25,196 nucleotides of DNA from Anaerolineae bacterium (GTDB lineage: Bacteria; Chloroflexota; Anaerolineae; S140-20). How positions within the stretch are numbered: the stretch's first letter is position 1; every line of letters starts with the position of its first letter. The notes under the pieces are model-generated. The model saw only the letters and a program-made list of their open reading frames with translations. It ran no database searches and was not told the DNA's origin. The position numbers were made by a program, and so were the translations under genes. This document shows positions 268 through 25,196 of this stretch, one piece after another. The DNA lies in contig JALUTT010000147.1 of the NCBI GenBank assembly GCA_027021705.1, positions 1 through 25,196 of the forward strand. Reading direction: 5' to 3'.

Positions 268-1200
268 ATGAGCGAAAAGAGCGTTGTTCCCCACACCCAG
301 GTTCCCAGTACATCGTGGACAGGCATCGTCGTCGGCCTTCTGCGCACAATGCGCCCCAAACAGTGGACCAAGAACGGGTTTATCTTCGCGGCCCTGATCT
401 TTGACAAGAAGCTCCTCATGCCGGTTTATCTCAGCCGCACGGTGGCCGGCTTCCTTCTCTTCTGCCTCATTTCCGGGACGGTCTACTTGATCAACGATCT
501 GGTGGACGTGGAGAAGGATCGCCAGCATCCCAAGAAGCGCCTTCGCCCCATCCCCTCGGGACAGCTTCCCGTCGGCGTGGCCCGGGCGGCAGCCCTGATC
601 CTTCCGCTGTTGGTGCTCCCGTTGGGGTTCCTGCTGGATCCCATCTTCGGGGCCATCATCAGCGGCTACCTGATCCTCCAACTGAGCTACTCCTTCTACC
701 TGAAGCATCAGGTGATCCTGGATGTGCTGACCATCGCGGCCGGCTTCGTCCTGCGGGTGGCGGCAGGCGTTCCCCTGGTGGAGGCGGAGCGCTTCTCCCC
801 CTGGCTCTACGTCTGCACGACGCTGCTGGCCCTCTTCCTGGGCTTTAGCAAGCGGCGGGGGGAGCTGATCCTGTTGCGGGAGAACGCCAACAATCACCGG
901 GCCATCCTCCAGGAGTACAGCCTGCCCCTGCTCGACGAGATGATGAGCGTCGTCACCGCTACCACCGTGCTCTCCTATGCCCTCTACACCTTTGATCCCC
1001 ACAATCCGAACCTGCCCGAGAACCATACGATGATGCTGACGATCCCCTTCGTCCTGTACGGCATCTTCCGTTATCTTTACCTGGTCCATCAGAGGGGGGA
1101 GACAGCTCCTCCCGACGAGCTGTTGCTCAAGGATCGCCCCCTCCAGATCACCGTCCTGCTCTGGGGGCTGGCGGTGGCGGCGATCCTGTATCTGGGGTGA
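268..1200 (+). CDS. UbiA-family prenyltransferase, decaprenyl-phosphate phosphoribosyltransferase-like
   Basis: MRPKQWTKN, YLINDLVDVEKDRQHPKKRLRPIPSG, GFVLRV, KRRGEL motifs; many hydrophobic helices; RBS GGAAGGAG before ATG 268. Confidence 0.9.
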   Translation: MSEKSVVPHTQVPSTSWTGIVVGLLRTMRPKQWTKNGFIFAALIFDKKLLMPVYLSRTVAGFLLFCLISGTVYLINDLVDVEKDRQHPKKRLRPIPSGQLPVGVARAAALILPLLVLPLGFLLDPIFGAIISGYLILQLSYSFYLKHQVILDVLTIAAGFVLRVAAGVPLVEAERFSPWLYVCTTLLALFLGFSKRRGELILLRENANNHRAILQEYSLPLLDEMMSVVTATTVLSYALYTFDPHNPNLPENHTMMLTIPFVLYGIFRYLYLVHQRGETAPPDELLLKDRPLQITVLLWGLAVAAILYLG

Positions 1201-1218
1201 GGGGGAGGGGGGAGCGCT

Positions 1219-1304: not shown

Positions 1305-2315
1305 ATGGGGAAAGGTAGCGACGAGGGAAGGGACGAGGCCGGGAGCCCGCCGGAGGCGTGGGTGGGGACGGCCCCGGGAAAGGTGATCCTCTTAGGAGAA
1401 CACGCGGTGGTCTACGGGGAGCCGGCCATCGCGGTGCCCGTGAGCCAGGTCCGGGCCCGGGCGACGCTCACCCTGCTGCCCGCCGGCCGCGGCCTGACGC
1501 TGGAGGCGGCGGACTTGGGGCGGCGCTATCCCCTGGCCCAGGCTCCCGACGACGACCCGCTGGCCCTCATCGTCCGGCTGACCCTGGAGCACTTCCGGGC
1601 ACGGGAGCCGGACGCTCTCCTCACCATCACCTCGTCCATCCCCATCGCTGGAGGGTTGGGCAGCGGGGCCGCCGTCAGCGCAGCCATCGTTCGAGCGCTG
1701 GCCAGCTTCCTGGGTAGAAGGGTGGAGCCTGCCCTGGTGAGCCGGTTGGTCTACGAAGTGGAGAAGCTGCACCACGGCACCCCCAGCGGCATAGACAACA
1801 CCGTCATCGCCTACGAGATGCCCGTCTACTTCGTCCGCCAACCCCAGGGCTCCCCCCGGATCGAGCCCTTCACCGTGGCCCGCCCCTTCCGCCTGCTGAT
1901 CGCCGACAGCGGCATCACCAGCCCGACCCGCGAGGTGGTGGGCGACGTCCGACGAGCCTGGGAGGCAAACCGAGAGCGGTACGATCTCCTTTTCGGGGCC
2001 ATCGGGTGGATGGTCGAGAAGGCCCGCCAGGCCATCGCCCAGGGGGAGCTCGCCGCTCTGGGCCTGCTGATGGGCGGGAACCAGCAGCTGCTGCGGGAGA
2101 TGGGCGTCTCCCACCCCCGCTTGGAGGCGCTGATCCGGGCGGCGAAAGAGGCCGGTGCCCTGGGAGTCAAGCTCTCCGGGGCCGGCCGGGGGGGGAACGT
2201 CGTCGCCCTGGTGGATAAAGAGACGGAAAAAGAGGTAGCCTCCGCGCTGGCGGCCGCCGGCGCGGTCCGGGTGATCGCAACAACAGTGCGCGAAGGACAA
2301 GAGAGGGAGGTGTAG
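1305..2315 (+). CDS. mvk: Mevalonate kinase (GHMP family); start codon uncertain
   Basis: APGKVILLGEHAVVYG, PIAGGLGSGAA, HGTPSGIDN, KLSGAGRGG; GAGGTG RBS 8 nt before ATG 1305. Confidence 0.9.
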   Translation: MGKGSDEGRDEAGSPPEAWVGTAPGKVILLGEHAVVYGEPAIAVPVSQVRARATLTLLPAGRGLTLEAADLGRRYPLAQAPDDDPLALIVRLTLEHFRAREPDALLTITSSIPIAGGLGSGAAVSAAIVRALASFLGRRVEPALVSRLVYEVEKLHHGTPSGIDNTVIAYEMPVYFVRQPQGSPRIEPFTVARPFRLLIADSGITSPTREVVGDVRRAWEANRERYDLLFGAIGWMVEKARQAIAQGELAALGLLMGGNQQLLREMGVSHPRLEALIRAAKEAGALGVKLSGAGRGGNVVALVDKETEKEVASALAAAGAVRVIATTVREGQEREV

Positions 2316-2318
2316 CGC

Positions 2319-3224
2319 GTGGAACGTCAGGTACGCAGCTCTGGGAGAGGTCAGCCGATGGTCATCCCTTTGAAGACGGCCGAGGGAGGGAACGGCCGGG
2401 AGACGACAACCGTGGACTCTGCGGTGCTGGAGAGGAAGCTGGCCCACCTGCGCCAGGTCCTCCGCGATTTGGGGAGCGTGGTCGTCGCTTTCTCCGGCGG
2501 CGTGGATAGCACCTTCCTGCTCCAAGTTGCCCACGAGACGTTGGGGGACAAGGCGGTGGCGGTCACCACCGTCTCGCCCAGCGTCCCCGCTTCGGAGTTG
2601 GAGGAGGCCAAGGAGTTGGCCCGACGGATCGGCAGTCGCCACGTGCTCCTGAGGAGCCATGAGGTGGAGAACGAGCGCTATCGGGAGAACACGCCGATGC
2701 GCTGCTACTTCTGCCGCCAGGAGACTTACAGCTTGATGACGGCGTTCGCCCGACGAGAAGGGTACGCGGCTGTGGTGGATGGAGCCATCGCCGACGATGC
2801 CGATGATTACCGACCGGGGCGCCAGGCGGCTCGGGAGAAAGGGGTGCGCAGCCCCCTTCTGGAAGTAGGGTTGACCAAGGTAGAGATACGGGCCCTCTCC
2901 CGCCAGATGGGCTTGCCCACGTGGGATAAGCCTTCAATGGCCTGTCTCTCCTCCCGGATCGCCTACGGGATCCCGGTCACCGAAACGCTGCTCTCCCGCA
3001 TCGAGCAGGCGGAGCAGTTCCTGCGGCGGCTGGGGCTTCGCCAGTTGCGGGTGCGCCACCACGGCCCCATCGCCCGTATCGAGGTGGAGCCCGATGATTT
3101 CCCTGTGCTCCTGGTTCACCGGGAGGAGATCGTTGCCCGGCTGGAGGCCCTGGGCTACACCTATGTCACGATGGACTTGGCCGGCTTCCGCTCCGGCAGC
3201 ATGAACGAGGCGGGGCAGACCTGA
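2319..3224 (+). CDS. larE: ATP-dependent sulfur transferase LarE; alternative start ATG 2358
   Basis: PP-loop SGGVDS, RCYFC, DYRPG, WDKPSMACLSSRI, LRVRHHG, GFRSGSMN. Confidence 0.92.
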   Translation: MERQVRSSGRGQPMVIPLKTAEGGNGRETTTVDSAVLERKLAHLRQVLRDLGSVVVAFSGGVDSTFLLQVAHETLGDKAVAVTTVSPSVPASELEEAKELARRIGSRHVLLRSHEVENERYRENTPMRCYFCRQETYSLMTAFARREGYAAVVDGAIADDADDYRPGRQAAREKGVRSPLLEVGLTKVEIRALSRQMGLPTWDKPSMACLSSRIAYGIPVTETLLSRIEQAEQFLRRLGLRQLRVRHHGPIARIEVEPDDFPVLLVHREEIVARLEALGYTYVTMDLAGFRSGSMNEAGQT

Positions 3225-5905: not shown

Positions 5906-6165
5906 AGTCCTCGGTCCTCGCCCCTTGCCTCTTGCCCCTTGCCCCTTGCCTCTTGCCCCTTGGCCCGTTGGTCGAGTGGTCAGGTGGTCGCGTGGTCGGC
6001 GGTCGGTTACGCCGTCCTCAGCCCTCGGTGCCTCGGCCCTCAGTGCCCCCCTTGCTCGGCGGTCGGCGGTCGGCTACGCCGTCCTCAGTCCTCAGTCCTC
6101 GGTCCTCAGTCCTCAGTCTTCGGCCCTCGGTGCCTCGGCCCTTAGCCCTCGGTGCCTCCCTTAGC
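5906..6165. repeat. Mosaic of short tandem repeats between trpS and trpB2
   Basis: About 6 x CC(C/T)CTTG, about 4 x TGGTCG-like 8-mers, runs of GTCCTCA/GTCCTCG/GCCCTCG, duplicated GGCGGTCGG(T/C)TACGCCGTCCTCAG. Confidence 0.85.
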
Positions 6166-6176
6166 CGCCCATCGGC

Positions 6177-9593: not shown

Positions 9594-9902
9594 GGGCAGG
9601 GCTTGCCCGATCCCTCTGCTTGCCGGGACGCTTCTGCACAGGCGCAGTGATCACTCTTCCCTGTCTCCATTCCCGCCCAGGGCGAGACGTGGTGGCTCTC
9701 CCTAGCTCTTACTGGAGGCGGGCTATGGTTGCCCTTCCTTCCTCTTCCCGTCTGCCTCCTTCGCCCTACTTCTTCCTGCTCGAAAGCTATGGGCTTTGCC
9801 GTTCATCGGGGATCAGGACCTGGATTCGGTGAACAGGCCCGTGGATCTGAAGGCTATGGTCTCCCCACCTCCGCATCTGAAACTGTTGAAGGAGGATTTG
9901 GA

Positions 9903-12900
9903 ATGAAGCGATTGGTACGTCTTCTGCTCATCCTGATCGTGGGCCTGGGCCTCGTTCTCCTGCGCTTGGCTCACGTTCCGGCTCAGGCCGACGGTGCCAC
10001 CCCGCTTCTCATCAGCGAAGTCCTCTACGATCCCCCCGGCCCTGAGCCGGATGGGGAGTGGATCGAGGTCTACAACCGTGGTGACACCACCGTGGACCTC
10101 CACGACTACAAGGTGGGTGACGACGAGAAGGTGCGCGGCGGGGCCGAGGGGATGATGCAGTTTCCCGCCGGAGCCACCCTCGATCCGGGAGAGGCGGTCG
10201 TCGTCGCCAACAAGGCTACGGCCTTCTTCAACCTCTACGGCTTCAACCCCGACTACGAGATGTACGACTCCGACCCCAACGTCCCCGACATGATCCAGTA
10301 CCTGGCTTGGAGCAACGGGGATGTCAACCTGCGCAACGCCGGGGACGAGGTCCTGCTTCTGGACAGGGCGGACAACGTCGTGGATGCCCTCTCCTGGGGG
10401 GACTCCGACTACGCTTTCGGCGACTCCCCGGCCCCGGTGGTCGCCGAAGGCCATTCCCTGGAGCGGTATCCCCCCTACCAGGATACCGACACGGCCGATG
10501 ACTGGCGAGACCAGCCATCGCCCAGCCCGGGCACCGTCCCGGCTGCTCCCACACCCACGCCGACGTCGCCTGCACCCACACCGACGCCTACGCCGACGCC
10601 CACGCCGACGCCCACCCCTGCTCCGCCCCTTGCCGAGGTCCTCATCACCGAGATCATGCAGAACCCCAGGGCGGTCAGCGACTCCAACGGTGAGTGGTTC
10701 GAGATCTACAACGCCGGCGACACCACCGTGGACCTGGAGGGGTGGACCTTCCGCGATGCCGACACCGACAGCTTCGTCATCGTCGGCTCGCTGCCCATTG
10801 CCCCCGGCGACTACCTGGTGCTGGGCCGCAACGGGGATCCCGGCCAGAACGGTGGCGTGACCCTGGACTACGTCTACGGCAGCGATATGGCCCTGAGCAA
10901 CGGGGCCGACGAGATTATCATCGAGGACGCCGACGGACGGGAGGTGGACCGCGTCGAGTACGACGGCGGCCCCGAGTGGCCCGACCCCAACGGCGCTTCG
11001 ATGATGCTCAAGGACCTGGCCCTGGACAACAACGTGGGGGCCAACTGGCAGGAGACTCCCCCCGACCTGACCTACGGCGACGGCGACCGGGGGACCCCCG
11101 GCTGCCCCAACGACGGCTGCCCGCTGGACTACACCCCCATCTACGACATTCAGTACACCACCGACCCCGGCGGCGACTCCCCCCTGGTGGGCCAGGTGGT
11201 CACCACCGAGGGCATCGTCACCGCCCGCTTCCGGTACGGCTACTTCATCGAGGACCCGGCGGGCGGGGCCTGGAACGGTCTCTGGGTCCACGACACGACC
11301 AACACCCCCGACCGGGGGGATCGGGTGCGCATCACCGGTGAGGTGGCCGAGTACTACGGCCTCACCGAGCTGGACAACCTGACCGCCTACGAGGTCGAGT
11401 CCAGCGGTAACCCCCTGCCCGACCCCGTCGTGCTCCCCACCGGCGATGTCTCCCAGGAGCAGTGGGAGGGGGTCCTGGTCCGCGTCGAGAACGTCACCGT
11501 GGTCAACGCCGACCTGGGCTACGGCGAGTGGTCGGTGGACGACGGCTCCGGTGAGGTGATCATTGACGACAAGGGGGACTACACCTACACGCCCACCGAG
11601 GGCGACGAACTCCGCTCCATCACCGGGCCGCTGGACTACCACCACGGGGCCTTCAAGATCCAGCCCCGGGACGACGCCGACATCGTGCTGCCGGCCGGTC
11701 CGGCCCCCGTCCTCATCTCCGAGATCCAGACGGGCGGGGCCACCGGCAGCGACGAGTTCATCGAGCTCTACAACCCCTCCGACAGCGAATCCTTCAACCT
11801 GAAGGGCTACCGCCTGGTCTACCGCTCCGCCTCGGGCACCACCGACTACCTGCGCTACGAGTGGACGGAGGATACCTTCATCTCGCCCTACGGCCACTAC
11901 CTGCTGGTCAACGAGAGCGGCTACGACGGCGACGTGCCCGGCGACGCCACCTACAGCCAGGGGCTCTCGGGCACGGGCGGCGGCCTGGCCCTGCGCAACC
12001 CCGACGGGGAGATCGTGGACTCGGTGGGCTGGGGGACGGCCAGCAACGACTTTGTCGAGGGGAGCCCGGCGCCGGCCCCGCCGGCCGACCAGAGCATCGA
12101 GCGGCTGCCCGGCGGCGACGAGGGCAATGGGCAGGACACCGACGACAACAGCGCCGACTTCCAGGTCATTGACCCGCCCAACCCCCAGAACACCGACAGC
12201 CCCTCCACCCCCTCGCTGGTCATCCCCATCGGCGAGGCCCGCACCCGCCCCTTGGGCAGCGAGGTGATCGTCGAGGGGACGGTCACCGTCCCGCCCGGCA
12301 CCTACAACAAGGGCTTCGCCATCCAGGACGAGACGGGCGGCATCTACGTCTACAACGACGGCGGCCTGCTCCCCTACGGCCTGGGCGACGTCCTGCGGGT
12401 GAAGGGGCCGCTGACCGAGTACCGGGGGCTGCTGGAGATCACGCCGGCCGAGGCCGACGTCACCCTGGTGGGCAGCGCCCCGGTCCCCGACCCCCGGCCC
12501 TACCACACCGGCGAGATCTCCGAGGCGACGGAGGGCTGGCTGGTGGTGATCAGCGGCACCGTGACCAGCGTCTCCGACAGCAGCTTCACCGTGGACGACG
12601 GCTCCGGCCCGGCCACCGTCTACATTGACTCCGACACGGGCATCGAGATCACCGACCTGGAGCCGGGCACCTTCGCCGAGGTCGTCGGCTTCAGCAGCCA
12701 GTACGACCCCTCCGCCCCCTACGACAGCGGCTACCAGGTGATGCCCCGCTTCCAGGAGGACCTGACCTTCACCGTGGTGCCCGTCTACCAGGGCGACTGC
12801 CCGGCCCCGGCCCCCCTCTCCACCGAGCCGACCGTCCTCATCAACCAGGTCCTCTACGACACCTGGGAGCACGGCCACGAGGAGGTGGGCGAGGCGGTCC

Positions 12901-15392
12901 AGCTCTGGAACCCCAACGACGCCGAGGTGGACCTCTCCGGCTGGGCGCTGACGGACAATGAGGGGACGGCGACCTTCCCCGCCGGCACCACCATCCCGGC
13001 CCAGGGCACCCTCTGGGTGGCGAAGGACGGGGACGACTTCACTGCCAGCTTCGGCTTCGCCCCCGACCTGACCTACGCCGAGATGACCGTCAGCGGCACG
13101 CTCCAGTTGGACAACGTGGCCGATGAGGTGGTCCTGCTGGACGGGACGGGGGCCGTCGTGGACGCGCTGGTCATCGAGGACGGCTGCGCCCTGGAGCAGA
13201 GCGGCTGGGCCGACGACCACGGTGTCTCCCCCTACCTCTTCGCCAGCTACGTTCCCGACGACGGCCAGGTCCTCTACCGCAAGCTGGACGAGGCGACCGG
13301 CCTGCCCGTGCCCGACACGGACACGGCGGCCGACTGGGCCCAGGACCCCAACGATCCGACGCTGGGCCGCCACGTCCGCTACCCCGGCTGGGACCTGGAG
13401 CAGTTCTTCTTCCCGGCCCAGGCCGAACAGGCGGCGACAACGAAGCTCCTGGTCGCCCCCGACAACATCTACGAAGGCGTGGCCGAGCTGATAGACAACG
13501 CCCAGTCCACCATTGACATCGAGCTCTACCTCTTCACCAACCCCTACCTGGCCGACCACCTCTTCGCGGCGATGGACCGAGGGGTCCAGGTGCGGGCCCT
13601 CTTCGAGGGCGAGGTCTACGGCGCGCCGGGCGGCACCTACGACGACGTCCGCTGGGTGGCCCAGGGGATCTACGAGCGGGGCGGTGAGGTCTACTGGTGG
13701 CGGGACGCTCCCGACGGTCACCCCGACCGCTACAACAACGTCCACCAGAAGTTCCTCATCGTGGACGGCACCTGGGCCTTCATCAGCAGCGAGAACCTGA
13801 CCCAGGGCTCGATGCCGGCCGACGACAAGGGGAACGGCACCTACGGCAACCGGGGGGCGGCCATCATCACCAACGCGCCCGTCGTCGTCCAGCGGTTGCA
13901 GGAGGTCTTCGCCGCCGACCTGGACCCCGACCACCACGGCGACGTGGTGCCCCACAACCCGGCCCCCTACCCCGACGGGGACGCGCCGCCGGAGGGGTAC
14001 GTGCCCGAGTACGAGGGCGACCGGGAGGGGTACACGCCCGTCAAGCCGGAGCCGCTGACGCTGGAGGGCGAGGCCACCTTCGAGGTCGTCCAGTCGCCCG
14101 AGAGCAGCCTGCGCACCTCCGACGCGCTGCTGGGGATGGTGGCCCGGGCCGATGCGGGCGACGTGGTGCTGGTGGAGCAGCAGTACGAGTACCTGACCTG
14201 GGGGCCGGAGGGGGCGGAGATGACCAACCCCCGCCTGAACGCCTACATCGAAGCGGCCCGGCGCGGGGCCACCGTCCGCGTGCTCCTCAACGGGGCCTAC
14301 GGTCTGGAGCGGAACATCGAGACGCGGGACTACTTGAACGACCTGGCGGCCGCCGAGGGGCTGGACCTGGAGGCCCGGCTGGGGACGCCCACCAGCGGCA
14401 TCTCCGGCACGGAGACGATCACCAAGCCCATCCACAACAAGATGGTGCTGGTCTACGACGGGGAGAGCGGCGGCTGGGTCCACGTGGGGAGCATCAACGG
14501 CTCCGAGAACGCCAGCCGGTACAACCGGGAGGTGGCCCTCCAGATCGGCTCCACCGAGGCCTACGTCTACTACGCCGACGTCTTCCACCACGACTGGCTG
14601 GCGGCGGGTGGGGAGCCCTTCCCCTACGCCCCGCCGGAGGCCGCCTTCACCCCCAGCGCCACGGAGGTGGTGCGCGGCGATCCCATCACCTTCACCAACG
14701 AGAGCAGCGGCTCGCCGCCGCTGAGCTACCGGTGGGACTTCGGCGACGGCGAGTTCAGCGACGAGGAGAGCCCCACCCACGTCTACCGGCGTCCCGGCGT
14801 CTACACGGTGACGCTGACGGTGAGCAACCCCCTGGGGACCGACCAGGCCCAGGCGGTGATCACCGTGCTCCCCCTGGTGGAACCGCTGGAGGAGTGGCAG
14901 GTCCGCGCCGCCGTCATCCAGTGGTTCCCGCTGCGCGATGGGCAGGGCGGCTTCGTCGCCCTGGCCCGGCTGGAGCTCCCGCCGGACTATCGGCGCGAGG
15001 ACCTGAGCGGTGAGATGACGCTGGAGCTGACCATCGGCGGCCGGACGGGGAGCGACACGGTGCACCTGATCAAGCGGCGGCGGATTTGGCGCTACCACCG
15101 CCGGCACGGCGACGGCGAGGGGGACGGCCTGGACCTGAGCCACGTGGTCATTTTCTGGCGCAACGACCGGAAAGCGCCCGTGGTCCAGTTGATGGGGCGG
15201 TTCAACCTGCCGGGGACGGGCTGGTGGACCCATCCGGCCGAGGCGACCTTCGGCATCCAGTTCCCTGTGACGACGCCGGGGCTGGCCGACCTGGTGGCCG
15301 GGGAGACGACGGTGACGTTCCGGGTGCTGGGCTTCCGCTGGGTCTACCAGGCGGGGATGCCCCGGATCCCCCGGCCCCGGCCCCTCCGGTAG
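9903..15392 (+). CDS. Secreted multidomain protein: 4 lamin-tail domains, OB folds, phospholipase D superfamily pair, PKD domain
   Basis: Signal peptide MKRLVRLLLIL...AQA; ISEV/ITEI/ISEI/INQV...E(W/F)xExYN lamin-tail repeats; PT linker; VTTEGIVT and FTVDDGSG OB folds; HQKFLIVD and HNKMVLVYD...GSIN; SYRWDFGDG...PTHVY PKD; RBS GGAGG. Confidence 0.88.
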   Translation: MKRLVRLLLILIVGLGLVLLRLAHVPAQADGATPLLISEVLYDPPGPEPDGEWIEVYNRGDTTVDLHDYKVGDDEKVRGGAEGMMQFPAGATLDPGEAVVVANKATAFFNLYGFNPDYEMYDSDPNVPDMIQYLAWSNGDVNLRNAGDEVLLLDRADNVVDALSWGDSDYAFGDSPAPVVAEGHSLERYPPYQDTDTADDWRDQPSPSPGTVPAAPTPTPTSPAPTPTPTPTPTPTPTPAPPLAEVLITEIMQNPRAVSDSNGEWFEIYNAGDTTVDLEGWTFRDADTDSFVIVGSLPIAPGDYLVLGRNGDPGQNGGVTLDYVYGSDMALSNGADEIIIEDADGREVDRVEYDGGPEWPDPNGASMMLKDLALDNNVGANWQETPPDLTYGDGDRGTPGCPNDGCPLDYTPIYDIQYTTDPGGDSPLVGQVVTTEGIVTARFRYGYFIEDPAGGAWNGLWVHDTTNTPDRGDRVRITGEVAEYYGLTELDNLTAYEVESSGNPLPDPVVLPTGDVSQEQWEGVLVRVENVTVVNADLGYGEWSVDDGSGEVIIDDKGDYTYTPTEGDELRSITGPLDYHHGAFKIQPRDDADIVLPAGPAPVLISEIQTGGATGSDEFIELYNPSDSESFNLKGYRLVYRSASGTTDYLRYEWTEDTFISPYGHYLLVNESGYDGDVPGDATYSQGLSGTGGGLALRNPDGEIVDSVGWGTASNDFVEGSPAPAPPADQSIERLPGGDEGNGQDTDDNSADFQVIDPPNPQNTDSPSTPSLVIPIGEARTRPLGSEVIVEGTVTVPPGTYNKGFAIQDETGGIYVYNDGGLLPYGLGDVLRVKGPLTEYRGLLEITPAEADVTLVGSAPVPDPRPYHTGEISEATEGWLVVISGTVTSVSDSSFTVDDGSGPATVYIDSDTGIEITDLEPGTFAEVVGFSSQYDPSAPYDSGYQVMPRFQEDLTFTVVPVYQGDCPAPAPLSTEPTVLINQVLYDTWEHGHEEVGEAVQLWNPNDAEVDLSGWALTDNEGTATFPAGTTIPAQGTLWVAKDGDDFTASFGFAPDLTYAEMTVSGTLQLDNVADEVVLLDGTGAVVDALVIEDGCALEQSGWADDHGVSPYLFASYVPDDGQVLYRKLDEATGLPVPDTDTAADWAQDPNDPTLGRHVRYPGWDLEQFFFPAQAEQAATTKLLVAPDNIYEGVAELIDNAQSTIDIELYLFTNPYLADHLFAAMDRGVQVRALFEGEVYGAPGGTYDDVRWVAQGIYERGGEVYWWRDAPDGHPDRYNNVHQKFLIVDGTWAFISSENLTQGSMPADDKGNGTYGNRGAAIITNAPVVVQRLQEVFAADLDPDHHGDVVPHNPAPYPDGDAPPEGYVPEYEGDREGYTPVKPEPLTLEGEATFEVVQSPESSLRTSDALLGMVARADAGDVVLVEQQYEYLTWGPEGAEMTNPRLNAYIEAARRGATVRVLLNGAYGLERNIETRDYLNDLAAAEGLDLEARLGTPTSGISGTETITKPIHNKMVLVYDGESGGWVHVGSINGSENASRYNREVALQIGSTEAYVYYADVFHHDWLAAGGEPFPYAPPEAAFTPSATEVVRGDPITFTNESSGSPPLSYRWDFGDGEFSDEESPTHVYRRPGVYTVTLTVSNPLGTDQAQAVITVLPLVEPLEEWQVRAAVIQWFPLRDGQGGFVALARLELPPDYRREDLSGEMTLELTIGGRTGSDTVHLIKRRRIWRYHRRHGDGEGDGLDLSHVVIFWRNDRKAPVVQLMGRFNLPGTGWWTHPAEATFGIQFPVTTPGLADLVAGETTVTFRVLGFRWVYQAGMPRIPRPRPLR

Positions 15393-15457: not shown

Positions 15458-15610
15458 GGTGATTACCCATATCTTCGGAGATAGGGAGACCAGCCGTCCA
15501 CGAATGGGGCACGAATACACGAATGAAGGACCGCCTCATTCGTGCATTTGTGAGAAATTCGTGGACGGCCTGCTACGGACCACGCTCTCGCTCACTTGTG
15601 GGTAATCACC
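15458..15610. mobile_element. Repeat family A copy 2, 153 bp
   Basis: GGTGATTACCCATA...TGTGGGTAATCACC; colinear with 8-160 and 22225-22377. Confidence 0.85.
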
Positions 15611-21099: not shown

Positions 21100-21816
21100 T
21101 CAGTCCTCGAGCTCGATGACCAACCGTTTGTTGATCCGCCCCTTGCTCTTGTAGTCCACGATGCGGATGCGCCCCACCTCGGAGGTGTTGGCCACGTGGG
21201 TGCCCCCATCGGCCTGGAGGTCCAGCCCCTCGATCTCCACCGTCCGCACCTGGGTGATCTGCGGCGGCAGGAGGTTGATCTTGGTGCGGATCAGGTCGGG
21301 GATCTGGAAGGCCTCTTCGCGGGGGAGGATGGCGATCTTGACGGGGCGGGCGGCGGCCACCTCGGCGTTGACCTTCTCCTCGATCTCCTGTACCAACTCC
21401 TTGCGCATCCGCTCAAACTCAAAGTCCATCCGGGCTCGGCCCGGCTGCATGTTGCCGCCGGTGACCTGAGCGCCGTAGTCCCGCCAGATGACGCCGGAGA
21501 GGATGTGGAGGGCGGTGTGGGTGCGCATGAGCTTGTAGCGGCGCTCCCAGTCCAGCCGGCCCACGACCCGGGTGCCCACGGGCGGCGGATCCCCGTCCAC
21601 CGTGTGCCAGACGGTGTCGCCCTGCTTCTTGACCCGGGTGACCGGCCAGGTCTGCTCGCCGGCCTGGAGCGTTCCGGTGTCGTGGGGCTGACCGCCGCCG
21701 CCGGGGTAGAAGGCGGTCCGGTCCAGCGCCACGGCCCTCGCCTCCGGGTCCACCGCCGTCACCGTGGCCTCGAACTCGCGCAGATAGCTGTCGGTCTGGT
21801 AGAGCAGGTCGGTCAT
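21100..21816 (-). CDS. AlaX-M-type trans-editing aminoacyl-tRNA deacylase
   Basis: LYQTDSY, TAFYPGGGGQPHDTG, MRTHTALH, ARMDF, QADGGTHV; RBS AGGAGG. Confidence 0.9.
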   Translation of the reverse strand: MTDLLYQTDSYLREFEATVTAVDPEARAVALDRTAFYPGGGGQPHDTGTLQAGEQTWPVTRVKKQGDTVWHTVDGDPPPVGTRVVGRLDWERRYKLMRTHTALHILSGVIWRDYGAQVTGGNMQPGRARMDFEFERMRKELVQEIEEKVNAEVAAARPVKIAILPREEAFQIPDLIRTKINLLPPQITQVRTVEIEGLDLQADGGTHVANTSEVGRIRIVDYKSKGRINKRLVIELED

Positions 21817-21849
21817 CGCTCCTCCTTGCGTCGTAGGCGAGAGGGGGTG

Positions 21850-22165
21850 AAGCAAACCGGCTCCCGTCCCAAAGGGACGAGAGCCGGACAGCGCTCCCGC
21901 GGTACCACCCTTCTTCCCCACAGTGTGGGGCTCTCTGTCGGCGACGCCGGGCTTCCCGGTGCCTGAAGCGGTCGGAGCCCTTGATCACCGCGTCCCGGTA
22001 ACGGGGGACGAGGCCGGCTGCGTCTACTGGGCCGGGGAGCGCCCCCGACCGTTCGGGCAGCGGCTCCGGAGGGATTTTCGACGGGGCTCGCGCGTCCGGC
22101 TCCCACCTTCCCGGACTCTCTGGGGCGCTACCTCCCGCCTACTCGTCTCCATCATCGCCTTTGGC
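21850..22165 (-). promoter_or_regulatory. T-box riboswitch, Ile (AUC) specifier
   Basis: Minus strand: GATGATGGAGACGAGTAG, CAGAGAG, GGTGGGA, GAAA-ATC-C-CTCC (ATC 22075-22073), AGTAG/CCGTTA, T-box AAGGGTGGTACCGCG, 14-bp terminator stem 21857-21887 plus TTTGCTT. Confidence 0.9.
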
Positions 22166-22224: not shown

Positions 22225-22377
22225 GGTGGTTACCCATATCTTTGGAGATAGGGAGACGAGCCGGCCACGAATGGAGCACGAATACACGAATTAAGGACCG
22301 CCTCATTCGTGCATTTGCGAGAAATTCGTGGACGGCCTGCTATGGACCACTCTCTCGCTCACTTGTGGGTAATCACC
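22225..22377. mobile_element. Repeat family A copy 3, 153 bp
   Basis: GGTGGTTACCCATA...TGTGGGTAATCACC; colinear with the other two copies. Confidence 0.85.
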
Positions 22378-22410
22378 GCACCGAAGCGCTTGCGGGGCAA
22401 TCGTCTCCCA

Positions 22411-24660
22411 TCTGCTCAATCCGTTCTTAAGCGGATTGCTGTCAACGGATTAGGGGAGCGGATTGAACGGAACTGATGCCCCCCCATCCGCTCAATCCGT
22501 TCTCAAATCCGCTGACAGCTATCCGTTCTCAAGCGGATTGCTGTCAACGGATTCGGGGAGCGGATTGCTGTCAACGGATTAGGGGAGCGGATGGAACGGA
22601 ACTGATGTCCCCCCATCCGTTCAATCCGTTCTCAAATCCGCTGACAGCTATCCGTTCTTAAGCGGATTGCTGTCAACGGATTCGGGGAGCGGATTGAACG
22701 GAACTGATGCCTCCCCATCCGCTCAATCCGTTCTCAAATCCGCTGACAGCTATCCGTTCTCAAGCGGATTGCTGTCAACGGATTAGGGGAGCGGATGGAA
22801 CGGAACTGATGTCCCCCCATCCGTTCAATCCGTTCTCAAATCCGCTGACAGCTATCCGTTCTTAAGCGGATTGCTGTCAACGGATTCGGGGAGCGGATTG
22901 AACGGAACTGATGCCTCCCCATCCGTTCAATCCGTTCCTTAAAATCCGCTGACAGCTATCCGTTCTCAAGCGGACTGCTGTCAACGGATTCGGGGAGCGG
23001 ATTGAACGGAACTGATGCCCCCCATCCGTTCAATCCGTTCCTTAAAATCCGCTGACAGCTATCCGTTCTCGAGCGGATTGCTGTCAACGGATTCGGGGAG
23101 CGGATTGAACGGAACTGATGCCTCCCCATCCGTTCAATCCGTTCCTTAAAATCCGCTGACAGCTATCCGTTCTCGAGCGGACTGCCGTCAACGGATTCGG
23201 GGAGCGGATTGAACGGAACTGATGCCCCCCATCCGTTCAATCCGTTCCTTAAAATCCGCTGACAGCTATCCGTTCTCGAGCGGACTGCCGTCAACGGATT
23301 CGGGGAGCGGATTGCTGTCAACGGATTCGGGGAGCGGATTGAACGGAAAGGTGTGCTCCCAAGAAGGCATTCCAACCGACCAGAACCCCTGACGAAGCAC
23401 CGGCACCCCCTCAGGCGAACTTCGACGGACCGCCTACGGAGAGCTGCCGTTCCCTATCCGTTCAATCCGTTCTCAAATCCGCTGACAGCTATCCGTTCTT
23501 AAGCGGATTGCTGTCAACGGATTCGGGGAGCGGATTGAGCGGAACTGATGCCTCCCCATCCGTTCAATCCGTTCCTTAAAATCCGCTGACAGCTATCCGT
23601 TCTCAAGCGGATTGCTGTCAACGGATTCGGGGAGCGGATTGAACGGAAAGGTGTGCTCCCAAGAAGGCATTCCAACCGACCAGAACCCCTGACGAAGCAC
23701 CGGCACCCCCTCAGGCGAACTTCGACGGACCGCCTACGGAGAGCTGCCGTTCCCTATCCGTTCAATCCGTTCTCAAATCCGCTGACAGCTATCCGTTCTT
23801 AAGCGGATTGCTGTCAACGGATTCGGGGAGCGGATTGAGCGGAACGGTCATCCCCCATCCGCTCAATCCGTTCTCAAATCCGCTGACAGCTATCCGTTCT
23901 TAAGCGGATTGCTGTCAACGGATTCGGGGAGCGGATTGAGCGGAACTGATGCCCCCCATCCGTTCAATCCGTTCCTTCAAATCCGTTGACAGCCTCTCAC
24001 CCCAAGGCGGACTGCTGTCAACGGATTCGGGGAGCGGATTGAGCGGAACTGATGCCCCCCATCCGTTCAATCCGTTCCTTCAAATCCGTTGACAGCCTCT
24101 CACCCCAAAGCGGACTGCCGTCAACGGATTCAGGGAGCGGATGGAACGGAACGGTCATCCCCCATCCGCTCAATCCGTTCCTTCAAATCCGTTGACAGCC
24201 TCTCACCCCAAAGCGGACTGCCGTCAACGGATTCAGGGGGCGGATGGAACGGAACGGTCATCCCCCATCCGTTCAATCCGTTCTCAAATCCGCTGACAGC
24301 TATCCGTTCTCAAGCGGACTGCTGTCAACGGATTCGGGGAGCGGATTGAACGGAACTGATGCCCCCCATCCGTTCAATCCGTTCTCAAATCCGCTGACAG
24401 CTATCCGTTCTCAAGCGGACTGCCGTCAACGGATTCGGGGAGCGGATGGAACGGAACTGATGTCCCCCCATCCGTTCAATCCGTTCTCAAATCCGCTGAC
24501 AGCTATCTGTTCTCAAGCGGATTGCTGTCAACGGATTCGGGGAGCGGATGGAACGGAACTGATGCCCCCCATCCGCTCAATCCGTTCCTTCAAATCCGCC
24601 GACAGCTATCCGTTCTCAAGCGGACGGCCGTCAGCGGATCGGGGGAGCGGATTAAGCAGA
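22411..24660. repeat. Tandem array of 19 nested-palindromic ~101-104-bp units plus partial end units
   Basis: Consensus GCGGATTGCTGTCAACGGATTCGGGGAGCGGATTGAACGGAACTGATGCCCCCCATCCGTTCAATCCGTTCTCAAATCCGCTGACAGCTATCCGTTCTCAA; 19 GACAG right arms counted by eye. Confidence 0.95.
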
Positions 24661-25196
24661 CAGGACGATGCTGCGCCGTGAGCTCCAGGCCCGCTCCTTG
24701 GGCCCCACCGGGATGGTGAAGAGCCGCGTGCGCAGGTCTCCCTCGCCCAGCGCGGTCAGGCGCACCTTGTCGCAGCCCGGCGGCCGCTCCACCACCAGCC
24801 AGAAGTGGTACACCCCTAGGATGGGCTTCTCCTTGGCCCGTAGCTCCCAGTAGGGGGCCCGCTCCTCCTCCCCGAAGAAGCCCAGCGTGACCGGTGTCAC
24901 CTGCCCCAGATGGAGGTCGGCGCTCAACTTCCCCGGCGTCGCCTCCACCGGTCCGGCCTTCAGCCCCAGGCCGACCTCCACCCGGACGGCGGTCGGTTTC
25001 CCCTCGTAGAGGCGTTCCGGGTAGAGGGCCAACACCTGGGGCTGGACCCGGCTTCCCGGCGCGAAGAGATAGGCGCGGCACCAGGCGGCGGTGTAGGCCC
25101 ACCCCGCCTCCCGCCCCTCCGGGAGCACGTCAAACTCCATCCCCAGCCGCACCAGGTACAGGTCGCCTCGGGCCAGGGCCCCGGCCGGCGCGCCCT
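24652..25196 (-). CDS. Hypothetical protein, 5' end outside the window
   Basis: Frame stays open from the TAA at 24652 to the window edge; host-like GC-rich codons; no family recognised. Confidence 0.7.
   Translation of the reverse strand, partial: GAPAGALARGDLYLVRLGMEFDVLPEGREAGWAYTAAWCRAYLFAPGSRVQPQVLALYPERLYEGKPTAVRVEVGLGLKAGPVEATPGKLSADLHLGQVTPVTLGFFGEEERAPYWELRAKEKPILGVYHFWLVVERPPGCDKVRLTALGEGDLRTRLFTIPVGPKERAWSSRRSIVLSA

Follow-up and report, generated by a model that had tools for sequence, protein, structure and literature searches.

The 25,196-nucleotide stretch of DNA analysed here (the window; contig JALUTT010000147.1, or C147, of the Anaerolineae assembly GCA_027021705.1, a draft genome of 5.19 Mb, 66% G+C and 183 contigs) carries at positions 22411-24660 a tandem array of nested palindromes built from short CGGA-type words. 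The array is the largest locus of a dispersed hairpin family, hereafter family A, whose arms adjoin, in this genome and in others, a small gene of the GxxExxY (PDDEXK_3) nuclease family. On one side it is bounded by the stop codon of an adjacent open reading frame (ORF), and its other boundary faces a sub-threshold T-box-like leader on the minus strand, ahead of AlaX-like, Fic and IleRS genes. An earlier note, made from the DNA letters alone, had described a 2.25-kb non-coding array of 19 nested-palindrome units, and this description is borne out by Tandem Repeats Finder, by parsing of the units and by gene calling.

Parsed at the outer-left word, the array resolves into 19 full units that start at 22430, 22559, 22661, 22763, 22865, 22969, 23072, 23176, 23306, 23502, 23606, 23802, 23903, 24006, 24109, 24212, 24313, 24414 and 24516. 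Seventeen of them measure 101-104 bp, and the two that start at 23306 and 23606 reach 196 bp because a 108-nt insert takes the place of the loop; two additional 27-bp half-arms are found at 22532 and 23279. Tandem Repeats Finder reports periods of 102 bp (7.4 copies, 95% matches, 22559-23314), 103 bp (11.8 copies, 23452-24653) and 204 bp (10.2 copies, 22559-24652), and neither a crude gene caller based on third-position G+C (GC3) nor Pfam detects coding content within the array. Each arm opens with a GCTGTCA boundary followed by three to four (A/G)(A/G)CGGAT(T) words of 8-9 nt at unequal spacings of 14, 13 and 9 nt, and arms are joined either by a long loop of about 14 nt or by a short linker, CT(C/T)(A/G); altogether, 22401-24680 contains 87 CGGA and 73 TCCG motifs. 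The stems, the loop variants and the clustering of variants in neighbouring units (CCTTAAA in units 5-8 and 10, CCTCTCACCCC in units 13-15) described in the earlier note agree with our parsing. In addition, 23306-23545 and 23606-23845 form an identical 240-bp duplication, and neighbouring units are more alike (identity 0.934) than units five apart (0.893). Public short-read contigs from four DNA runs end at 22253 and restart at 24569, and none spans the array, so that the unit count is that of the assembly alone.

Two inverted arms make one hairpin and, in the array, the right arm of a unit together with the left arm of the next makes a second, the two folding registers arising because the hairpins are so closely spaced that arms of adjacent units pair. 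Both registers, already described in the earlier note, are real and lie far beyond chance relative to shuffled sequences: the long-loop hairpin folds at -35.8 kcal/mol (z -5.45) on the plus strand and -40.8 kcal/mol (z -5.01) on the minus strand, the short-loop hairpin at -45.9 (z -8.80) and -39.1 kcal/mol (z -7.87), respectively, and 0 of 200 shuffles match these energies for either register or strand. Folded as DNA, a 306-nt stretch of the array reaches -98.5 kcal/mol (z -14.4; 0 of 100 shuffles equal). Palindromic repeats at regular spacing are shared with clustered regularly interspaced short palindromic repeat (CRISPR) arrays, where spacers are unique, whereas here all sequence between arms is itself repeated from unit to unit in a few loop variants; because there are no unique spacers, and a Pfam scan of 23 window ORFs reveals no cas family (540 bp of the window remain beyond the array), the array is not a CRISPR, and the phrase 'CRISPR-like layout but not a CRISPR' of the earlier note was correct.

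With one unit as a BLAST query, we found 98 family-A loci totalling 27,723 bp in the source genome, the window array accounting for 2,235 bp. According to the GC3 gene caller, which is crude but recovers the Pfam-supported genes of the window, 95 of the 98 loci are intergenic; they lie at a median of 116 nt from gene 3' ends (n=55) and 309 nt from 5' ends (n=51), and 18 fall within 200 bp of a contig end. Arms alternate in orientation and are connected by two linker types. Each array has its own period (101-104, 101, 111, 141-156, 140/62, 157 and 224 bp), and mean identity of units is 0.83-0.97 within arrays versus 0.56-0.85 between them, from which we conclude that amplification is local, as in bacterial interspersed mosaic elements of the BIME-2 type in Escherichia coli, whose tandem copies, in the available portions of PMC3333891, are well conserved at a locus and differ in number and sequence between loci and strains. 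The window array expanded at its present site through tandem duplication of one- and two-unit blocks, and slippage and unequal recombination between the two pairing registers would account for the remaining growth. With its dispersed intergenic relatives, alternating arms, two linkers and homogeneous arrays, the family supports the earlier suggestion of an amplified BIME-like element, and we hold with high confidence that the array is a cluster of hairpin repeats, selfish or neutral, that arose by growth at this site. Taken by itself, the locus is probably junk DNA that has side effects, namely a hairpin barrier between two transcription units and broken short-read assemblies, which makes family-A arrays a practical concern; family-A loci probably also vary in length between strains.

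A family-A arm spans 36-45 nt and consists of a CTGTCA boundary and three or four 8-9-nt AACGGATT-type words, with the consensus CTGTCA(A/G)CGGATT, a variable spacer of 5-6 nt, (A/G)(A/G)CGGATT and then GAACGGAT; arms of the window carry an additional fourth word, AGCGGATT, in front. The exact 13-mer CTGTCAACGGATT is present in 87 of 401 sampled Anaerolineae genomes, with 273 copies in the source genome, and 35 genomes, from about 19 families by our count, hold at least three copies; a reversed control pattern gave seven single hits. A scan of 185,579 species genomes with a 21-mer of the arm returned at least 114 stretches, and 80 of 80 among the matches listed belong to metagenome-assembled genomes (MAGs) of Chloroflexota/Anaerolineae type, while a single viral contig in IMG/VR (24 kb) also carries an exact 21-mer. 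In most genomes the family takes the form of solo hairpins that measure 70-110 bp and have a free loop.

Between genomes the arms stay constant, and the loops and outer shells differ. The outer shell is TACCTCATCAA-ended in the source genome, reads AGCAC..CAAAGC..GGGGGAT in the genomes G344 and G212, and is a CGCAGAG-word palindrome in G015. In the source genome, long-form solo copies of about 200-315 bp are bounded by an outer terminal inverted repeat (TIR), TACCTCATCAA...TTGATGAGGTA, and the three copies with both ends show a perfect 4-bp direct duplication in two cases (CTAG/CTAG and CTAT/CTAT) and a 3/4 match in one. The 108-nt loop insert of the two long window units is the junction of two such shells: where two long-form elements abut, the right outer arm of one runs into the left outer arm of the other, with one CCGG 4-mer common to both. 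We detected outer arms at no more than some 15 left and 6 right sites, and most family-A loci have no outer TIR.

A GxxExxY gene was first hinted at by clustering the ORFs in the flanks of about 140 family-A loci and then by comparison of positions, which revealed that in each genome one particular PDDEXK_3 gene lies beside or between family-A arms. In the source genome this single-copy gene (contig C52, 449-907) encodes a protein of 153 aa that matches PF13366 (106 bits) and TIGR04256 (112 bits), and a family-A array of 1.4 kb comes within 16 nt of the stop codon. We searched the C52 protein against 400 Anaerolineae genomes and recovered full-length orthologs, that is, orthologs that include a conserved 25-aa C-terminal tail, in 20 genomes and one partial ortholog; one of the ortholog genomes, G388, was excluded from flank checks and alignments. 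All nine other genomes with an ortholog of at least 69% identity hold at least three 13-mers, against a base rate of 34/400. Furthermore, CGGA-type word hairpins lie within 260 nt of all 21 full-length ortholog loci, on both sides in 18, and the words themselves change with the identity of the ortholog: CTGTGAACGGATT at 64-67%, GTCAACGGAGG/GGAACGGAA at 64%, CACGGATT at 58-59% and CACGGAGG at 50-53%.

The same layout extends to more distant genes of the family. Word arrays flank eight of eight more distant homolog loci, all five remaining PDDEXK_3 loci of the source genome and four of four PDDEXK_3 loci in G015, G135 and G089, each with a word of its own. In G398, the hairpin that flanks the genome's own GxxExxY homolog has 72 matches across the genome. 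Plasmid records of other phyla follow a looser pattern (three of five clear, two partial), the gene there having housekeeping genes, fabD and fabG among them, close by on either side. The flanks were checked by eye on marked sequence, and co-variation was likewise judged by eye; the formal control, which covers the source genome, found convergent repeated 7-mers around 24 of 3,163 predicted genes (0.76%) versus four of six PDDEXK_3 loci. Arms of family A lie next to the nuclease gene, and the flanking words co-vary with the protein.

Two further loci are of note in their own right. The G010 ortholog (G010:C4:91500-93200, 421-1212, minus strand; L179) carries a fused N-terminal extension of about 110 aa, giving a 263-aa ORF, and lies between convergent direct-word arrays. 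In G015, a solo family-A hairpin sits in the loop of a CGCAGAG-word palindrome (L033, G015:C3, 920-1100), and CGCAGAG words also bracket a different GxxExxY gene there (L225, G015:C6); elements of different nuclease lineages therefore nest in one another.

In the C52 protein, PF13366 and TIGR04256 span residues 12-128, and D76, E86 and K88, which make up the PD...E-x-K triad, as well as the G-x-x-E-x-x-Y residues are invariant in an alignment of 18 orthologs from which the G175 and G212 rows were left out. These two close orthologs (G175:C14:17985-18434, L192; G212:C99:44734-45189, L194) each contain one in-frame TAG, which could reflect a pseudogene, a sequencing error or recoding. An AlphaFold2 model of the protein is confident (predicted local distance difference test, pLDDT, 90.6; predicted template modelling score, pTM, 0.85), and among solved structures it comes closest to Cas4 SSO0001, lambda exonuclease, RecE, a Spirosoma restriction-endonuclease-like protein and Hjc, with modest TM-scores (0.37-0.56); a sequence search of the PDB gave no match. 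With its intact PD-(D/E)XK motif and its confidently modelled fold, the C52 protein looks like an active nuclease. Metagenomes contain 928 clusters of the C52 subfamily at E-values up to 1e-20, and all that are named are Chloroflexota 'GxxExxY protein' entries. The GxxExxY family is large but rarely mentioned in the literature searched, whether as GxxExxY or as PDDEXK_3/PF13366, and is listed as 'Unknown' in the part of Steczkiewicz et al. 2012 (PMC3424549) available to us.

We propose that family A and the GxxExxY nuclease form a repeat-plus-nuclease partnership, a link that we consider reasonably probable and that is drawn at the level of sequence. The nuclease would be the likely trans-acting partner of the repeats, presumably recognizing the restriction-site-sized words in the manner of a restriction-enzyme-like reader and cutting at or near the conserved GTCA boundary or at the extruded hairpin. 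Such cuts would seed copying into new spacers and local re-amplification, as is thought of the REP-associated tyrosine transposases (RAYTs) that act on repetitive extragenic palindromic (REP) sequences and BIMEs; binding, cutting and mobilization are thus predictions from gene position and motif conservation. We accordingly lean, with moderate confidence, towards a description of the array as a BIME-like pile-up of gene-less family-A hairpin copies with a C52-type nuclease as probable partner. A broader proposal, which we hold to be about evenly balanced between true and false, is that the array represents the gene-less amplified form of an undescribed class of bacterial mobile or domesticated elements, whose enzyme would be a GxxExxY PD-(D/E)XK nuclease of 125-155 aa that reads tandem 7-9-nt words and has co-diverged with them in Anaerolineae and beyond.

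Several observations weigh against a partnership with the nuclease. Among the 34 other repeat-positive genomes, 23 have no ortholog at 58% identity or above, and G147, which is about 90% complete and holds 25 13-mers, gives zero PDDEXK_3 hits, although incomplete MAGs or gene loss may lie behind such cases. The source genome's C52 gene has a family-A array on one side only; the ortholog in G304 (58% identity) has other words at its flanks, although ten family-A 13-mers occur in that genome; the flanking repeat of G194 is found beside its gene only, that of G122 has four matches elsewhere, and the flanks of two paralogs in the source genome are purely local. The count of nine in nine genomes is statistically overstated, because related genomes are not independent. 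Finally, the perfect 4-bp duplications in two of three testable long-form copies could point to an ordinary DDE transposase.

The first alternative is that family A is an ordinary miniature inverted-repeat transposable element (MITE) with an internal minisatellite, whose conventional DDE transposase (for example of the IS5 type) is missing from the draft genome, the GxxExxY genes being fellow lodgers. The TIR-bounded long-form copies and their duplications, the single 4-mer shared by abutting copies, the presence of two cores within one TIR pair and three DDE_Tnp_1 (PF01609) fragments on short contigs would all fit such an element. These fragments, however, have no TIR, DDE_Tnp_4 (PF13359) gives no hit, and no transposase recurs among the flank ORFs clustered at the approximately 140 loci; no autonomous insertion sequence (IS) with the same ends and a transposase is found in a genome that is 95% complete, in which an IS could have stayed unassembled. 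Outer arms are detectable at a minority of sites only, the shell varies from genome to genome around conserved inner arms, and the change of flanking words with the GxxExxY protein is left unexplained, so that we consider this origin unlikely, although the perfect duplications leave some room for an ordinary MITE mechanism in the case of the shell. We also considered kilobase-spaced inverted arms as the ends of an autonomous copy and rejected them, as the intervals are alike only at their repeat ends and enclose housekeeping genes (HrcA-GrpE) or small family-less ORFs; the interval in G010:C5 contains a dehydrogenase-like ORF, and that in G344:C28 proved to be two separate hairpins, each complete, at a distance of 6.2 kb.

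Among bacterial MITEs, BrickBuilt of Porphyromonas gingivalis and the BOX elements of pneumococci contain internal repeats. Family A resembles these in being non-coding, in having a TIR-bounded long form with a possible 4-bp duplication and in repeating an internal module variably; it differs in that no matching transposase was found, most loci lack the outer TIR, and the inner module rather than the TIR is conserved.

A second alternative, compatible with the action of a nuclease, is a host-selected DNA platform, bound by a nucleoid protein, gyrase or a protein resembling integration host factor (IHF), or serving as a topological insulator, with a host protein unrelated to GxxExxY. A multivalent protein-binding platform, one of the possibilities raised in the earlier note, fits the word architecture of the array; word arrays of variable spacing and orientation look like arrays of binding sites, the loci lie nearer to gene 3' than 5' ends as given above, and E. 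coli REP sequences and BIMEs bind IHF, DNA polymerase I and gyrase according to the available text of PMC3333891. Set against this are the lack of a candidate protein, the patchy distribution of family A in the class and its near absence from genomes of the same family, copy numbers that range from 3 to 273 per genome, and the co-variation with the adjacent nuclease gene, which a platform leaves unexplained. We rate it as improbable, a step below a MITE origin.

Selection for a functional structured-RNA array at the locus, whether as a source of processed small RNAs, as a sponge for proteins or as a terminator/stabiliser cassette, appears very improbable. In its favour, the hairpins have high stability on either strand, the array adjoins the stop codon of the neighbouring gene, which makes read-through transcription plausible, and its ACGGA words may resemble A(N)GGA-type protein-binding motifs. 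Nevertheless, Rfam returns no hit at the gathering score over the whole window, and sub-threshold matches in the array (E up to 1) are to generic microRNA-precursor hairpin models only, at 20-33 bits versus cut-offs of 63-150; ARAGORN found no tRNA. Among 29 family-A loci between co-directional genes, 13 have the same orientation as the genes and 16 the opposite. Across 32 hairpins taken from other genomes, RNAalifold detects no covariation (term +0.52), with any double-sided change confined to two of 22 pairs; one pair is GU in 15, AU in 6, GC in 5 and AC in 5. Moreover, family-A arms in G010 form direct arrays of 36-bp period that are unable to pair, and the same-family genomes G001-G003 hold 1, 0 and 0 13-mers. 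The array shows no sign of strand-specific RNA, and the 'processed structured-RNA array' of the earlier note is left unsupported.

Finally, spread by a RAYT (Y1 HUH transposase), as for a strict REP/BIME family, is largely refuted and in our estimate just as improbable as an RNA function: the source genome does have two Y1_Tnp genes, one family-A core lies 25 nt downstream of that on contig C14, and the array layout matches the BIME-2 description in the available part of PMC3333891, but none of the 22 loci with RAYT homologs in 15 other genomes carries the module, the one close ortholog (76% identity), that of G038, belongs to a genome with a single 13-mer and no unit BLAST hit, RAYT-like genes are equally frequent in repeat-positive (3/8) and repeat-negative (12/32) relatives (both 37.5%), the C14 gene is preceded by a different repeat array, copies of a different, GC-rich REP stand to either side of the C49 gene, and the family-A arms have no GTAG or CGTC tag. 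Such a tag stands at the foot of REP palindromes in the accessible text of Di Nocera et al. 2013 (PMC3733652); in family A the CTGTCA boundary is conserved and the preceding bases vary, CGTC occurring within the window only in a minority variant, GCCGTCAAC. The two Y1 loci are themselves repeat-rich. Upstream of the C14 gene (L021, G000:C14:14609-17953, 1-1480), another repeat of about 100 bp forms an array that extends over at least 1.4 kb, and downstream (1990-3070) a PIN/antitoxin-like pair stands between direct repeats of about 135 bp that start with family-A words. The second gene (L022, G000:C49:16325-19669) has arrays of the GC-rich palindrome GCCCCGCCGTGGAACCGGCGGGGC on both sides (1230-1440 and 1880-2500), in a classical REPtron layout.

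Even with a different proposed partner, family A parallels the known repeat-enzyme systems, as far as the portions of the sources at our disposal go. With the E. coli BIME-2/RAYT REPtrons (Ton-Hoang et al. 2012, PMC3333891) it shares the intergenic position, the homogeneous tandem copies at each locus and a single-copy nuclease-type gene flanked by repeats. In contrast, a REP is a single palindrome of 20-40 nt, whereas a family-A arm is built of three to four tandem words; the family-A boundary is (T)GTCA, without the tag; the gene has a PD-(D/E)XK (GxxExxY) fold rather than that of an HUH Y1 transposase; and an association with RAYT genes, looked for in family A, was not found. The REP doublets forming hairpins (REPINs) that accompany RAYTs in Pseudomonas (Bertels and Rainey 2011, PMC3116915) are likewise about 100 nt long, with two inverted modules forming each hairpin, non-autonomous, present in tens to hundreds of copies per genome and served by a single-copy partner gene; family A differs in its enzyme family and in arms that are arrays of words conserved across families of a whole class.

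What gives the locus its value is that co-varying words connect a repeat found across the class with an orphan family of nucleases. If GxxExxY proteins are indeed the partners of word-built hairpin repeats, a second repeat-plus-nuclease partnership, with a different fold, would stand beside REP/RAYT, and the GxxExxY genes would provide small nucleases whose natural 7-9-bp specificities co-vary and are open to direct testing. A considerable part of the intergenic repeats that have so far lacked an explanation, in Chloroflexota as well as in other phyla, would then be accounted for. On the broader proposal, the family would in addition hold a natural, readable code of protein-DNA specificity and explain the many word-built and heptamer palindromes of Anaerolineae. 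Within the bounds of our literature search, we found no description of a link between GxxExxY and hairpin repeats and no paper that joins Anaerolineae with 'repetitive extragenic palindromic'; none of the top-ranked papers joins 'miniature inverted-repeat' with Chloroflexi or Anaerolinea, and the best matches to PDDEXK, REP, palindromic and intergenic combined concern other subjects. A paper on heptamer repeats (PMC4692102) deals with G-quadruplex repeats and has no bearing on family A. The statement of the earlier note that the array belongs to no named family therefore stands for the literature searched.

Table 1. Features of the array and its surroundings in the window.
Position	Strand	Feature	Basis
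22057-22164	-	T-box-like leader, 5' of AlaX-like ORF 21100-21921, then Fic and IleRS on the same strand	RF00230, 53.5 bits vs gathering score 93, E 3.2e-10
22260-22360		Second dispersed hairpin family, about 100 bp, CACGAAT then ATTCGTG words, beside the array	BLAST; more copies at 43-121 and 15493-15593
22360-22410		Left outer arm remnant of long-form element (..GAAGCGCTTGCGGGGCAATCGTCTCCCA), runs into the array	Aligns with left outer arm of solo copies
22411-22429		Partial right arm, array start	Unit parsing
22430-24618		19 nested-palindrome units and two 27-bp half-arms	Repeat finding, parsing, folding
23340-23455		108-nt loop insert, copy 1	Recurs at 23640-23756 and four times in contig C151
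23640-23755		108-nt loop insert, copy 2, within the exact 240-bp duplication	Sequence match
24619-24651		Partial left arm, array end; meets stop codon of adjacent minus-strand ORF	Unit parsing
24652-25194	-	3' part of ORF without Pfam family, open at window end; stop codon (24652) abuts the array	ORF list, Pfam

The source genome is crowded with several repeat families (Table 1). The CACGAAT/ATTCGTG hairpins have 240 BLAST matches genome-wide, many at 93-97% identity, and the GxxExxY gene on contig C83 is flanked by CGCGAAT words that are similar but not identical to CACGAAT. Elsewhere in the window, short intergenic tandem arrays with units of 6, 7, 14, 15, 21 and 39 nt occur at 1226-1309, 5916-6166 and 10575-10615, examples being CCTTGCC x7 and GTCCTCA x5, and an ORF on the plus strand (9729-15392) encodes a protein of 1,887 aa with four lamin-tail domains, a PLD-like nuclease/phospholipase domain and a PKD domain.

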